DNA of 64,000 bases from Candidatus Poribacteria bacterium (GTDB lineage: Bacteria > Poribacteria > WGA-4E > PCPOR2b), in NCBI GenBank assembly GCA_965208325.1, contig OZ242326.1, forward strand, positions 4,643,649 to 4,707,648. Reading direction: 5' to 3'. A program made the translations under genes and the position numbers. Positions 44,130 through 46,479 of the stretch are shown one piece after another. The notes under the pieces are model-generated. The model had not been told where the DNA came from, did no database searches, and was given only the letters and a program-made list of their open reading frames with translations. Each line of letters begins with the position of its first letter. Position 1 is the first letter of the stretch.

Positions 44130-45884
44130 TCACCCATGCACCGCGTGGTATGCCGCATTTTTGGACGCCGCCGCCAAGTAATCAATTTTCCGATTGTATA
44201 CCTCTGCATCTGCTGCGGTTTGGGTGATTTGCTGCGCCCAAGCGCCTTCGGCAGCATCTGGCGCGTCGAGGTATTTGCCGACGGGGAAGGCACAGAACTG
44301 ATCCCAGAGTTCTTCAGACAATTCTCTGTTGAAGGCGAGCCAACCGTTTTGGATTGGGGCTTCCAGTGCTTCGATTCGATTATACTTGTTTTTGGTACGC
44401 GCGACAAATTGAAGGGGTTCGGTGACTTTTTTGGCTATGGATACCGCATGGTAGTGCCGATCGAAATTTTCTTGCATGTCGCCGTGCTTATCTACTAAAC
44501 CTTCGCAACAGATGTGAAATTCGGGATTTCTGACTCTGGTGCTCAAGAAGGATTGAATTGAGATATACTCGTCTAGCAAAGCTTCGAGTTGCATTTGGCG
44601 ATTGTCTCGATCCAGCCAGTCGCTGAACACGTATCCGTATGCGTTGCCGGTGCCGTAATCGTCTTGATATCCCCCGGTAGGCACCGGTTCCCAGACGATT
44701 GTAACCACGGCGGCGAATGCGTTTTCAAGTTTCTTTGCGTTCGCGCCCGCCCAGTCGAGGAAGACGGTGGCACCGCTTAGCTCGCCCCAGCCAACCAACC
44801 TTCCGTCGGAACGGAGGAATCCATCCTCGGTGACATCAAATCGAATAGCTTCGTCCATGTTGAAGATTGCGAGCGAACGGTCTTCCGGAAAGTTTTGATA
44901 TTCGCGCAGCACATTTGCAATACCTTCATCGAAGGCTTTCTCGCGTAGGGCGCGGTAAGACCATTTCTCGGGCCAGGTCTCAACGACGCCCTGGGTCATT
45001 TGTTTTTCGTGCTTACGGTAGAAATCGTCGAGTTTTTGCACTCGCTGGAGTGGTTCTATAGACTTATCAATAAAGATTTTGCGGTAGTCTTTCCACAGAT
45101 TTTCGTGAATCGGATGGATTAACTTTTTCGGTTCTTCGATCGCACGTATGAAGATTGTTTTCCAGCTTGGACTGGCTTTCAATCGCATTGAGATAGCGTC
45201 CGAAGATTTGACGGTATCGACGTTAATGAAATTGGTGTATTCATCGCCGCATTGCATGAGATCGCTATTCCACCACCTAATATCTTTGGCGACATTGTTG
45301 GGATTCATCAGGGCTTCAAAGTCGTCCATGTCGTCGGCGACAACGAGGGTGGGGCGCCAGCCTTGGCGAAGTGCGCCGCGGATTTTGCCGCCGCGTCCCT
45401 GCGCCATCAGGCGTACGCCGTTCGCAGTCTCGGTTGCGTCCATGCCCCATCTCTCGCCCTTCAGATCCGGGTATTCTTGTTCGATGTAGTTGCGGATATC
45501 ATGAACACGATCGGCTGCAGTCGAATAGTTGCGGCTGACGATAAGTATGAATCGATCGCTCGTCACGCCGATTGATTCGTAAAACTCTTTGTACACAATA
45601 CAGTGCAGCGGGTATATGACCGCTAGGATGGTGCTTTTGGCAGATCCGCGCGGTGCGATTATGTTGACTTTTTTCCCTCTCGCGCCGCGCGGGATGGCGT
45701 TAAAGAATTTGTCGTGGTGTTTACCGAACCGTTTCCTCACGATTTCGGGAAACTTGAAAAAGGTGAACACTCCGAGCGACCAGAAGCAGGCAACTTCGAT
45801 ATCGCCGCCGCTGAAGTTCTCTTTAACGATTAAATCGATTTGCTCCTTGACGGTTAAGCCGTCAAGCGCCGTTTTTATATCCAT
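44130..45884 (-). CDS. Phage-type terminase large subunit (ATPase plus RNase H-like nuclease)
   Basis: Walker A APRGSAKST; GGKIRG...RPTLVVADDMD Walker B region; nuclease motifs FLDWAG, CCEG, KYNRIEAL, FPVGKYLDAPDA. Start assigned to ATG 45884 (MDIKT), overlapping the upstream gene by 23 nt. Confidence 0.85.
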   Translation of the reverse strand: MDIKTALDGLTVKEQIDLIVKENFSGGDIEVACFWSLGVFTFFKFPEIVRKRFGKHHDKFFNAIPRGARGKKVNIIAPRGSAKSTILAVIYPLHCIVYKEFYESIGVTSDRFILIVSRNYSTAADRVHDIRNYIEQEYPDLKGERWGMDATETANGVRLMAQGRGGKIRGALRQGWRPTLVVADDMDDFEALMNPNNVAKDIRWWNSDLMQCGDEYTNFINVDTVKSSDAISMRLKASPSWKTIFIRAIEEPKKLIHPIHENLWKDYRKIFIDKSIEPLQRVQKLDDFYRKHEKQMTQGVVETWPEKWSYRALREKAFDEGIANVLREYQNFPEDRSLAIFNMDEAIRFDVTEDGFLRSDGRLVGWGELSGATVFLDWAGANAKKLENAFAAVVTIVWEPVPTGGYQDDYGTGNAYGYVFSDWLDRDNRQMQLEALLDEYISIQSFLSTRVRNPEFHICCEGLVDKHGDMQENFDRHYHAVSIAKKVTEPLQFVARTKNKYNRIEALEAPIQNGWLAFNRELSEELWDQFCAFPVGKYLDAPDAAEGAWAQQITQTAADAEVYNRKIDYLAAASKNAAYHAVHG

Positions 45885-46479
45885 GATATTCGCCTTCAGT
45901 TCGGTCAGAATCCGCATTGAGCGACGTATTTTCCTCGGCTGCCGGCAGCGGAATACTGGGGCTGTTTTCGGGGTAAAGTTGCCTCCACTCATCGCGGAGC
46001 TGCTCGAGATGGTCGCGGCCATTGGTGGCTGTTGTGCCTTTGTTGTTTTCGGTCGGACCGTCGATTGGTTGCAAGTTTTTGTACATGTCCGATAGTGTCC
46101 TCAAGAATGCGATTATGTCTTTGGGGGCACTCAATTCCATCGGCAAAATTTTGGTTGATTTTACAATTTCCGATTGCTTCAAATACACGTCAAACATTAG
46201 CTCCGCGGCATGTCCGGAGGCGGCTTCAATGAGTTGGTCTCGGTGTGCCCTAAAGTGCCCTTTTGTGCCCTCAAACCGGAGTTTCCATTTTTTTGAAAAC
46301 TTTACATGGTACGGGTTGCACGTCCGGATTGCGTCTTTTATTTGATACCTCGGCGCAACATTCCAGTGCGGGTGGGTTGAAAGTAGATAATCAATGACGC
46401 GGGTCGTGGAGAAGCCGATTGCGTATAAATCGACAACGTCCGTGCGTTCTTCGTCCGTCAGTTTAATTTTTGCAGCCAT
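45862..46479 (-). CDS. Putative terminase small subunit
   Basis: 205 aa, N-terminal HTH-like segment (KLTDEERTDVVDLYAIGFSTTRVIDYL) and helical middle; AGGAG RBS; overlaps the terL start. Function inferred from position. Confidence 0.6.
   Translation of the reverse strand: MAAKIKLTDEERTDVVDLYAIGFSTTRVIDYLLSTHPHWNVAPRYQIKDAIRTCNPYHVKFSKKWKLRFEGTKGHFRAHRDQLIEAASGHAAELMFDVYLKQSEIVKSTKILPMELSAPKDIIAFLRTLSDMYKNLQPIDGPTENNKGTTATNGRDHLEQLRDEWRQLYPENSPSIPLPAAEENTSLNADSDRTEGEYHGYKNGA

Follow-up and report, generated by a model that had tools for sequence, protein, structure and literature searches.

Organization of the terminase locus

The analyzed window, a 64-kb stretch of a 4.7-Mb Candidatus Poribacteria genome belonging to a sponge symbiont (hereafter G000), contains a pair of phage-type terminase genes on the minus strand. 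As the original prediction had described, the pair consists of two intact, overlapping ORFs: a small ORF of 205 aa (45862..46479), a putative TerS by position, which overlaps the frame of the large terminase, TerL (44130..46022; 630 aa in its longest form), a member of phrog_38. An htrA-like gene with Trypsin_2 and PDZ domains (42574-43998) is located 131 bp downstream of TerL on the same strand, and an LRR/Big_1 metallopeptidase-like gene (47166-50243) is located upstream of the pair, matching the predicted arrangement. The Walker A and Walker B strings reported earlier are both present in the TerL translation, and Pfam scans of 46 ORFs of the window revealed no portal, capsid, tail or integrase, again in agreement with the prediction.

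The ribosome-binding site and dedicated promoter that had been proposed were both recovered on the minus strand. The sequence AAGGAG (46486..46491) stands 6 nt before the ATG of the small ORF, and a sigma-70-type promoter (TTGACA-18-TATAAT, 12/12; 46764..46793) is placed about 285 nt upstream of the same ORF. Within the 5' leader, the sequence and its RNA fold (z = -2.99) reveal an intrinsic-terminator-like hairpin followed by nine U (46580..46624, minus strand). This hairpin was not listed by the consensus scan that found the promoter, and the Rfam search of 43900-47300 returned no family at E <= 1.

Genome comparison defined the extent of this unit, designated cassette A (44094..46883, minus strand). 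Other species of the same genus are denoted G001, G002 and G003; the remaining intact cassette types of G000 are denoted B, C, D and E, and a truncated duplicate is denoted F. Homology between G000 and G001/G003 ends at 44092/44094, 36 bp beyond the TerL stop, while homology with G002 extends to 46883. Copy F keeps the promoter, G002 keeps it with a single change in the -10 hexamer, and the leader hairpin is 100% identical in both. The block common to cassette A and copy F runs from 45668 to 47093, and its upstream edge is formed by a REP/MITE-like repeat copy (46958..47093, minus strand), which probably lies outside cassette A proper. This repeat has many blastn matches genome-wide, and the genome contains its 10-mer core 314 times, where about 9 occurrences would be expected.

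The junction between htrA and TerL was bridged by contigs from four independent sponge metagenomes, and the same arrangement was observed in the second species, G002; the join is therefore not a misassembly, which the original prediction had named among the findings that would refute it. Sponge metagenomes from 13 studies contain this genome, and the 24 public runs listed include no RNA data set. The synteny with htrA, which the original prediction had suggested comparing across Poribacteria, proved to be narrow. Cassette A is common to G000 and G002 only; upstream of htrA, G001 and G003 have either an empty site or a restriction-modification gene.

Identity of the large subunit

TerL A matched the PHROG family phrog_38, annotated as 'terminase large subunit', with an E-value of 8.5e-45, and four TerL paralogues of G000 matched the same family (1e-44 to 1e-55). 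The expected assignment to Terminase_6 failed, with no Pfam match of any kind at E <= 0.01. Among NCBIfam models, TIGR01630 was reached only below threshold, and a T7-type model was weakly matched by paralogues C and E. With a profile built from 29 TerLs, no PDB sequence was reached at E <= 0.01, whereas the fold search did match. The AlphaFold (AF2) model of TerL A (pLDDT 84) retrieved in Foldseek the PhiV-1 terminase 8dgc_E as best match (E 5.4e-15), followed by HK97, T4 gp17, D6E and Sf6, the matches comprising full-length terminases as well as isolated ATPase and nuclease domains. Across 29 TerL homologues, no substitution occurs at the Walker A residue K129, at the pair D230/D231 or at the acidic residues D423, D586 and D589. 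TerL A combines the profile of a large terminase with an N-terminal ASCE ATPase (Walker A/B) and a C-terminal RNase H-like nuclease. The model leaves residues 1-34 disordered, so translation probably begins at M36 (45917) or M47 (45884); homologues in the databases measure 595 and 584 aa.

The closest isolated relatives are Mu-like phages, among them Faecalibacterium phage FP_Mushu, Haemophilus SuMu and Bacillus BalMu-1, with identities near 25%. Descent from a T7-like phage, whose terminase would sit at a genome end, had been considered in view of the weak NCBIfam T7-type match; it was dropped because the phage database gave Mu-like relatives and because related contigs show the order terS, terL, at least one ORF, portal.

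The small ORF in the terS position

The small ORF belongs to a family of 26 members in which N55 and P56 are invariant. It is located upstream of TerL, overlaps it and shares its operon, and a small ORF was observed in this position at 35 of the 41 chromosomal loci checked. The family profile matched 8 ORFs, each immediately 5' of a TerL, including those of two portal-bearing phage-like contigs (L251 and L255), in both of which the family occupies the terS position. Its identification as TerS, as originally made, is based on position, and no counterpart was found among known TerS families: there was no Pfam or PHROG TerS match, none of the 26 members had a TerS-family match at E <= 1, and hhalign detected no similarity between this family and the B-type TerS family (phrog_4102).

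The AF2 model of the small ORF is helical; its four short N-terminal helices have pLDDT >90 and lead into long helices, and the overall pLDDT is 70. Fold searches with this model gave no significant match (best Foldseek E 0.76; VIA-align Z <= 7.2, to generic helical hairpins). Look-alikes proposed by a language model were mostly viral, with Terminase_5 and Phage_Mu_Gp27 clusters among them, and are taken as a lead only. On the basis of its position, the small ORF is regarded as a putative TerS.

A multi-copy cassette family in the genus

The pair had been described as an orphan. It is indeed an intact stand-alone module in a genome in which no portal or capsid was found, but it is one of five such cassettes in G000, and the four species of the genus exhibit 5-8 TerL matches per genome. 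The five intact cassettes of G000, each a small ORF plus TerL of about 2.4-3 kb, are accompanied by decayed fragments. Their TerLs are full-length and stop-free, with 100, 52, 43, 40 and 38% identity to TerL A, and each is preceded by an ORF of 167-205 aa. All five cassettes possess a promoter with a perfect TTGACA -35 element, scoring 10-12 of 12. Leader terminators were identified in types A and E and are absent in types B, C and D.

Cassette TerLs are patchily distributed, being present in 33 of 176 genomes and 6 of 31 genera. Where chromosomal TerL loci occur, 41 of 42 (from several genera) are intact. The E cassette occupies the identical locus in all four species of the genus, and three further loci are intact in sister species and preserved only as remnants in G000. 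Decay in G000 extends to at least three TerL remnants and about nine scattered small-ORF fragments, in addition to copy F, a 95%-identical truncated duplicate of cassette A at another location, with two TAG codons. Patchy distribution and pseudogenised copies had been named in advance as signs against domestication, and both were encountered in part, in the missing A cassette of G001 and G003 and in copy F.

The neighbourhoods of the cassettes are variable regions with restriction-modification, SIR2 and transposase genes, and IS fragments are found close by. Upstream of cassette C, there are about 11 kb of uncharacterised same-strand ORFs, with an HNH gene among them. In G001, three B copies are 90-92% identical over a 3.0-kb block that ends 9-66 nt past the TerL stop; the search for their empty sites yielded one-sided synteny only. 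Cassette sequence was also present at both ends of a rearrangement. Overall, the cassettes are discrete units that end just beyond the TerL stop and are located at fixed chromosomal sites across species, where they have occasionally been duplicated, deleted or decayed.

Sharp-ended 3-kb blocks at different loci of one genome, sharing 90-95% identity, could suggest a small mobile element. Such an element might be autonomous, in which case TerL, with its RNase H-fold nuclease and its ATPase, would serve as the transposase, or it might owe its movement to other elements acting in trans or to recombination between repeats at its flanks. The clustering of copies by genome in a quick TerL tree, the presence of cassette sequence at both rearrangement ends, the nearby IS fragments and the REP-like repeats that flank several copies are consistent with this. 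Against it, cassette A lacks terminal inverted repeats, target duplications and att-like direct repeats; no transposase family was found in the unit; and the precise empty site of a 3-kb unit was not recovered. The REP-like repeats were also considered as the cassettes' own ends and rejected, as cassettes C and D have none nearby. Furthermore, many copies are syntenic across species and track the species relationships, which implies that movement is rare. We therefore regard a mobile element as quite unlikely.

Selection on the cassettes

TerL dN/dS ranged from 0.08 to 0.37 in 22 comparisons. Syntenic E orthologues gave 0.20-0.21 at dS of about 1, and the deeper TerL comparisons gave 0.15-0.22 at dS 0.6-1.1. 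For TerL A, the comparison of G000 with G002 yielded a dN/dS of 0.36, with a dS near that of the flanking host genes. Most small ORFs showed values of 0.10-0.26, and the A-type small ORF appeared weakly constrained between G000 and G002 (0.71 at dS 0.10). These substitution ratios indicate that the cassettes are under purifying selection.

With intact frames, its own promoter, this dN/dS and a real join, cassette A conforms to the earlier view that it is retained and not decaying. The contrary reading is that the copies are neutral debris of repeated prophage integrations from which only the terminase genes survived. The phage derivation of the genes, the existence of truncated and decayed copies, the occurrence of related TerLs in prophage-like clusters of other genera and the ORFs upstream of cassette C would be compatible with such an origin. 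Copy F itself has the appearance of a decaying prophage gene; cassette A, with its intact frames among host genes, does not. The low dN/dS at deep divergence and the near-complete integrity of the chromosomal TerL loci stand against debris, as does the finding that the two genes, their boundaries and a promoter of their own recur in each copy, and that the searches of G000 brought up nothing else from the related phage lineage. Debris, already disfavoured, is considered improbable, and the cassettes very probably represent a functional retained family.

Structural genes and phage relatives

The search for portal, capsid and tail genes elsewhere in the genome, suggested by the original prediction, comprised eight portal/capsid family searches and tblastn, and none was found. 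In G000, phrog_156, PF04860, PF05065, PF04233, PF16510 and PF05133 gave no match with working controls; PF06074 and PF12236 also gave none, with silent controls for both. Across the genus, PF05065, PF04860 and phrog_156 were found in 0 of 4 genomes. In tblastn searches of G000 with the structural proteins of related phages and of a prophage-like cluster in G010, only TerL matched, and no portal or head genes were observed within 10 kb of the four TerL paralogues.

TerLs that are 39-54% identical are located 1-4 kb upstream of a portal gene in Poribacteria of other genera and on a phage-like contig of 38 kb (locus L255), and a 43.8-kb contig bears a TerL (P0010) 53% identical to TerL A. Further contigs of roughly 40 kb carry TerLs with 45-58% identity to cassettes of the type seen in G040. 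Each cassette is interpreted as the holoterminase module of a Poribacteria-specific tailed-phage lineage whose TerL belongs to phrog_38. The portal-linked relatives do not exceed 54% TerL identity, and the searches brought up no phage whose terminase or portal matches closely. In IMG/VR, from which records near this genome may be absent, a single-protein scan returned nothing; profile scans of IMG/VR and metagenome contigs, subject to the same gap, returned only relatives of <= 34% identity.

These results bear on the proposal that the pair forms part of a dispersed gene-transfer agent (GTA), whose head and tail genes would lie elsewhere and be too divergent to recognise. Chromosomal packaging genes under selection would suit a GTA, and GTAs with split loci exist. 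However, no portal or capsid family was matched in G000 or the genus, the structural proteins of the closest phage-linked relatives had no tblastn match, and five divergent terminases would be redundant for a single agent. This part of the original prediction is not upheld by the data, and we consider a GTA very improbable. The debris, transposon and GTA readings are all weaker than that of capsid-less holoterminase cassettes.

Comparison with known packaging systems

The cassettes resemble the TerS-TerL pairs of tailed phages in gene order, overlap, Walker motifs, acidic nuclease residues and predicted terminase fold. They differ in that no portal, capsid or other phage gene was detected beside the pair or in the genome, and in that each pair has its own promoter and occurs as several divergent, syntenic copies per genome under purifying selection. 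GTAs such as RcGTA encode portal, capsid and tail. The cassettes share with them phage-derived packaging genes kept by the host under selection, and possibly the packaging of host DNA, but differ in that none of these three components was found.

Phage satellites are chromosomal elements whose packaging proteins redirect the capsids of helper phages, which harms the phage and spreads the element. They span 7-20 kb and carry an integrase, att sites, replication genes and regulators. PICI/SaPI elements carry their own TerS, and capsid-forming PICIs possess both terS and terL. The cassettes are similar as chromosomal packaging-gene units, which in the model proposed below would likewise act on phage capsids, and differ as two-gene units of about 3 kb with no att-like repeat and no integrase in the window. 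Published work on phage satellites with packaging genes includes 10.1101/2022.09.08.507074 and PMC10085698.

Two further comparisons concern how such a unit might operate. In lateral transduction, packaging starts in situ from a chromosomal pac site, and the terminase is part of a complete prophage or PICI. In the model proposed below, the cassette terminase would likewise start headful packaging at a fixed chromosomal site and carry neighbouring genes, but it stands alone, whereas the terminases of known cases belong to a prophage or PICI. Published work on lateral transduction includes PMC12829572. The expression signals of types A and E, namely a consensus promoter, a strong terminator about 60-170 nt downstream and terS-terL, resemble lambda-type late control. 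Under that type of control, a constitutive promoter produces a short terminated transcript until Q antitermination. The cassettes differ in that no antiterminator gene was identified and types B, C and D have no terminator.

Proposed role of the cassettes

The pair is one of five intact, self-promoted small ORF plus TerL cassettes, and we tentatively propose, at somewhat less than an even chance, that these have been retained as capsid-less holoterminases that act on the procapsids of infecting phages. A phage-dependent mechanism of hijack or interference, an option that now ranks first among those of the original prediction, is put forward with marginally greater reserve. The cassettes would stay silent or inactive until infection by a related phage makes procapsids available, at which point the chromosomal terminase would compete for the portal of that phage. 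Phage DNA could then be mis-processed, resulting in packaging interference, or headful packaging could begin at a putative chromosomal pac site near the cassette, resulting in transduction of host DNA together with the cassette. The divergent types within a genome may constitute a repertoire matched to different phage portals, and in types A and E the strong promoter followed by a terminator may reflect a control resembling that of phage late operons, which a phage antiterminator could open. In its fullest form, the model would have infecting phages turned into gene-transfer agents of the host with a reduced burst, as a two-gene defence and transduction system with cassette-linked putative pac sites; this extension is doubtful.

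Several observations weigh against the hijack model. The A-type small ORF is weakly constrained, and loss is tolerated, as copy F and the remnants indicate. The terminator is missing from three of the types, and the identity of the portal-linked TerLs is low. In PADLOC, no model matched either protein of types A, C and E or the TerL of type B, and the B small ORF had a single weak DrmC match (E 5.5e-4); the proteins of these four types thus do not correspond to a PADLOC defence system. Intragenomic duplicates at new loci, moreover, need a movement mechanism that the model does not supply.

The missing PADLOC match also counts against a host function that needs no phage capsid, in which TerL would cut DNA and translocate it with energy from ATP while the small protein recognises the DNA for it, for instance in nuclease defence or DNA processing. 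Long-term syntenic retention under purifying selection, placement within variable regions next to genes for restriction-modification, SIR2 and transposases, and the failure to find capsid and portal genes would all accord with such a function. The phage-like gene order and overlap and the preservation of all terminase catalytic residues argue in the other direction; five divergent paralogues are hard to fit to a single housekeeping role, and the distribution among genomes and genera is patchy. A capsid-independent host function is therefore viewed as unlikely, and retained holoterminases acting on phage procapsids remain the preferred reading.

On the prevailing view, a terminase serves no purpose unless its own virus provides the portal and procapsid. 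Here, two-gene units persist in several copies per genome, at conserved loci and under purifying selection, in genomes in which no capsid or portal was detected. The titles and abstract openings of the literature consulted contained no description of stand-alone terS-terL cassettes, and one may exist elsewhere. Should the units indeed target infecting phages, no smaller packaging hijackers would be known, and uncultivated sponge symbionts would have a new route both of defence and of horizontal gene transfer. Terminase genes routinely serve as markers of phages and prophages, and in genomes of this kind TerL counts would overestimate the prophage content.

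The terminase pair and its neighbourhood

Reading the sequence confirmed the two overlapping ORFs of the original prediction, both on the minus strand: a TerL gene at 44130–46022 (longest form 630 aa) and a small ORF of 205 aa at 45862–46479, which overlaps the TerL frame. The predicted terminase identity of the larger protein was upheld by a match to the PHROG family phrog_38, “terminase large subunit” (E 8.5e-45), but not by Pfam, where no family was found at E ≤ 0.01; the NCBIfam search gave a sub-threshold match only. The AlphaFold model of TerL (pLDDT 84; residues 1–34 disordered) retrieved the PhiV-1 terminase (8dgc_E, 5.4e-15) as its top solved structure, followed by HK97, T4 gp17, D6E, Sf6 and herpesvirus nuclease domains. 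Across 29 aligned homologues, no substitution occurs at the Walker A lysine K129, at D230/D231 or at the acidic residues D423, D586 and D589. Relatives with 76–99% identity to this TerL were found on at least 8 other contigs, and relatives of the small ORF (57–96% identity) occur on contigs whose lengths match those of the TerL-bearing ones.

As predicted, an htrA-like protease lies 131 bp downstream of TerL and an LRR/Big_1 metallopeptidase-like gene lies upstream. The remaining 40 large ORFs in the window are ordinary cellular genes, accompanied by four tRNA genes. The htrA–TerL join is genuine, since contigs of four independent sponge metagenomes bridge the junction and a second species has the same arrangement, which answers the concern that the join was misassembled. 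Synteny with htrA holds in this genome (G000) and that second species but not in two others of the genus: the site is empty in G003 and occupied by an Eco57I-like enzyme in G001.

Two groups of paralogous genes were also observed in the window. Large secreted proteins with LRR and Big_1/invasin-like domains are encoded at 3821–8044 and 47166–50243, the latter with weak metallopeptidase matches as well, and further segments paralogous to them lie near 3,688–3,693 kb of the genome. At 25001–28662, a Laminin_G_3 (concanavalin-like lectin) domain is encoded by each of four paralogous genes (~250 aa each) arranged in tandem.

Cassette copies in the genome

The description of the pair as a lone orphan was not sustained. 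The single-contig genome (4.71 Mb) holds five full-length, stop-free TerL copies (identities of 100, 52, 43, 40 and 38%), here called types A–E with A in the window, and each is preceded by an ORF of 167–205 aa. The genome also contains an N-terminal TerL fragment (93% identical) carrying two TAG codons, as well as weaker remnants of the C-terminal part. Around the other four copies, Pfam and PHROG scans (73 and 51 neighbouring ORFs) detected no portal, capsid or tail module. Among the genes nearby are a penicillin amidase, fragments of IS4/5 and Tn5 transposases, a Type ISP restriction enzyme, a SIR2 protein and HNH nucleases.

In cassettes C and D, an ORF of 87–88 aa overlaps the TerL stop codon (L010:14047–14310 and L011:11617–11883). 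No family matches it, and it may represent a third gene in cassettes of this type.

The small ORF

Single linkage groups the small ORFs of a second genus with those of types A, C, D and E in one 26-member family, whose alignment has an invariant Asn-Pro. This family matched none of the known TerS profiles in Pfam and PHROG, and hhalign found no similarity between it and phrog_4102, the TerS family matched by the small ORF of copy B (3.6e-20). Searching 16,361 ORFs of the fetched loci with the family HMM gave 8 matches, all directly upstream of TerL and two of them on portal-carrying loci (L251 and L255). The small ORF is therefore read as the terS-position gene of this phage lineage, on the basis of context rather than homology to a solved TerS. 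Among the proteins that a language model ranks as similar, most are viral and a few belong to Terminase_5 and Mu gp27 clusters, which offers a lead only.

Elsewhere in the genome, an intact 382-aa protein without a Pfam match (G000:C1:1583992–1585140; L227:5993–7141, minus strand) has an N-terminus homologous to the small ORF (34% over 91 aa); among its neighbours are a PemK toxin, an IrrE/HTH regulator, a PD-(D/E)XK nuclease and an HNH gene, and the region looks like a separate mobile or phage-like one. At G000:C1:1350897–1351316, a TerS-like stretch of 143 aa without an adjoining TerL shares 34% identity with the TerS of viral contig L052. Because it lies ~640 bp past the flank bordering an intact B-type cassette in G001, it probably represents a further decayed cassette.

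Partner phage genes and phage-linked relatives

The genome-wide search for portal and capsid genes returned none in G000, by profile or by tblastn. No match was obtained for phrog_156, the portal family adjoining related TerLs, or for PF04860, PF05065, PF04233, PF16510 and PF05133; PF06074 and PF12236 also gave no match, but their controls were silent and these two are uninformative. Structural proteins from the three closest viral contigs and from a prophage-like cluster in G010, a relative of another Poribacteria genus, were also used as tblastn queries, and TerL was the only match. PF05065, PF04860 and phrog_156 each gave no match in any of the four genomes of the genus, which carry 5–8 TerL matches apiece. 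A gene-transfer agent, in which the terminase would serve particles encoded elsewhere in the genome, is argued against by the failure to find structural genes.

TerL was matched in 15 of 41 relative genomes and, in the phylum sample, its family occurred in 33 of 176 genomes (6 of 31 genera) and phrog_156 in 20 of 176. In genera g5, g14 and g15, TerL is followed 2–4 kb downstream by the portal gene, which lies 6–18 kb away in most g11 genomes; none of the 40 g8 genomes has the portal gene, though TerL is present in 9. Scanning bacteria and archaea at one genome per species gave 78 loci, of which the 32 with Poribacteria titles include every full-length relative at ≥ 35% identity. The best full-length relatives outside Poribacteria reach ≤ 29%, and the closest isolated phages are Mu-like (~25%). 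A portal homologue lies within 8 kb in 7 of these 32 loci and is absent there in 25.

In the G010 cluster (L225:741–18308), TerL lies at one end; next come the portal and then structural proteins, followed by an internal virion protein and, ~15 kb further, a phrog_4102 TerS. This is the only recognisable TerS in the cluster, so that terS and terL stand apart.

Descent, selection and movement

A quick maximum-likelihood tree, in which long-branch joins are a risk, sorted the chromosomal TerLs into clades that are each specific to a host genus (A; B plus g5; C/D; E plus g11; G040) and set the three viral contigs on a separate long branch, with copies grouping within genomes. Flank comparison located the E cassette at the same locus in all four species, beside a Type ISP restriction gene. 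The E2 locus survives intact in G001, G002 and G003, and as a remnant of the C-terminal part in G000 (near 987 kb); likewise, the G001 C/D-type locus and the G002 E3 locus correspond to G000 remnants near 2,586 kb and, for the small ORF, near 1,015.7 kb.

The dN/dS comparison (Nei-Gojobori) indicated purifying selection on TerL, with 0.08–0.37 over 22 pairs. Syntenic E orthologues gave 0.20–0.21 at dS ~1, and the A-type TerL of G000 and G002 gave 0.36 at dS 0.16, while four flanking host genes had dN/dS of 0.16–0.20 at dS 0.18–0.28. Small-ORF values were mostly 0.10–0.26, with 0.71 for the A pair at low divergence and saturation in deep E pairs. TerL is intact in 41 of 42 chromosomal loci with ORFs called. 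Neutral prophage debris is argued against by these intact frames, by purifying selection maintained over dS ~1, by a constant two-gene content with its own promoter, and by finding no other gene of the related phage lineage.

Homology of G000 to G001 and G003 ends at 44092/44094, 36 bp past the TerL stop, and the host flank keeps htrA with its own promoter (44074–44046). Homology to G002 spans both genes, up to 46883. Elsewhere in G000, a truncated duplicate of A (copy F) is 95% identical over 45668–47093. Three B-type copies in G001 share a 3.0-kb block (90–92% identity) running from ~1.2 kb ahead of the TerL start to 9–66 nt past the TerL stop. The ancestral DoxX-HEAT-htrA block is whole in G003 and split in G000. 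Rare cassette movement or duplication clearly occurs. Counter to a picture of vertical retention are the missing A copy at the htrA site of G001 and G003, the duplicates at new loci, the within-genome clustering and the cassette sequence near both breakpoints of the split block. Active transposition is argued against by the lack of terminal inverted or att-like repeats at the unit and by the synteny of most copies.

Promoters, leaders and possible role

The predicted RBS (AAGGAG) and promoter (12/12 sigma-70 at 46793–46764) were found ahead of the small ORF, and all five units have a promoter with a perfect TTGACA hexamer (score 10–12 of 12). In type A, a hairpin and nine U follow ~170 nt after the promoter; promoter and 280-nt leader are almost unchanged in G002 and copy F, with an identical terminator in both. 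The type E leader terminator is as strong, type B has none, and the promoter directly adjoins the start codon in types C and D.

The module may have a capsid-independent role. We favour the reading that it would serve itself or its host through contact with infecting phages, because every packaging-enzyme feature is kept, related enzymes work in phages of this phylum that carry a portal, and several divergent types coexist in the manner of an arsenal. The promoter-then-terminator leaders of two types would, by analogy, fit this reading; such leaders are of the kind opened by phage antiterminators, as in lambda late control.

Dispersed repeats were also observed. The 48-nt leader stretch just before the small ORF (46507–46554) recurs at ~20 unrelated genome sites with 85–92% identity and is a second short dispersed repeat, besides the REP/MITE-like repeat at 46958–47093 (~100–170 nt, imperfect inverted ends, many copies genome-wide). 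The latter flanks several terminase cassettes, the genome contains 314 occurrences of its 10-mer core (~9 expected), and some copies form tandem arrays with 216–300 bp spacing (e.g., 4,044–4,046 kb, 1,112 kb and 1,912–1,914 kb in G000). In G002, a 2.07-kb element with two DUF1670 proteins is inserted upstream of the cassette leader (L043:9808–11877); it resembles an insertion sequence and has four copies at 95% identity in G000, near 81 kb, 2,034 kb, 3,760 kb and 3,856 kb.
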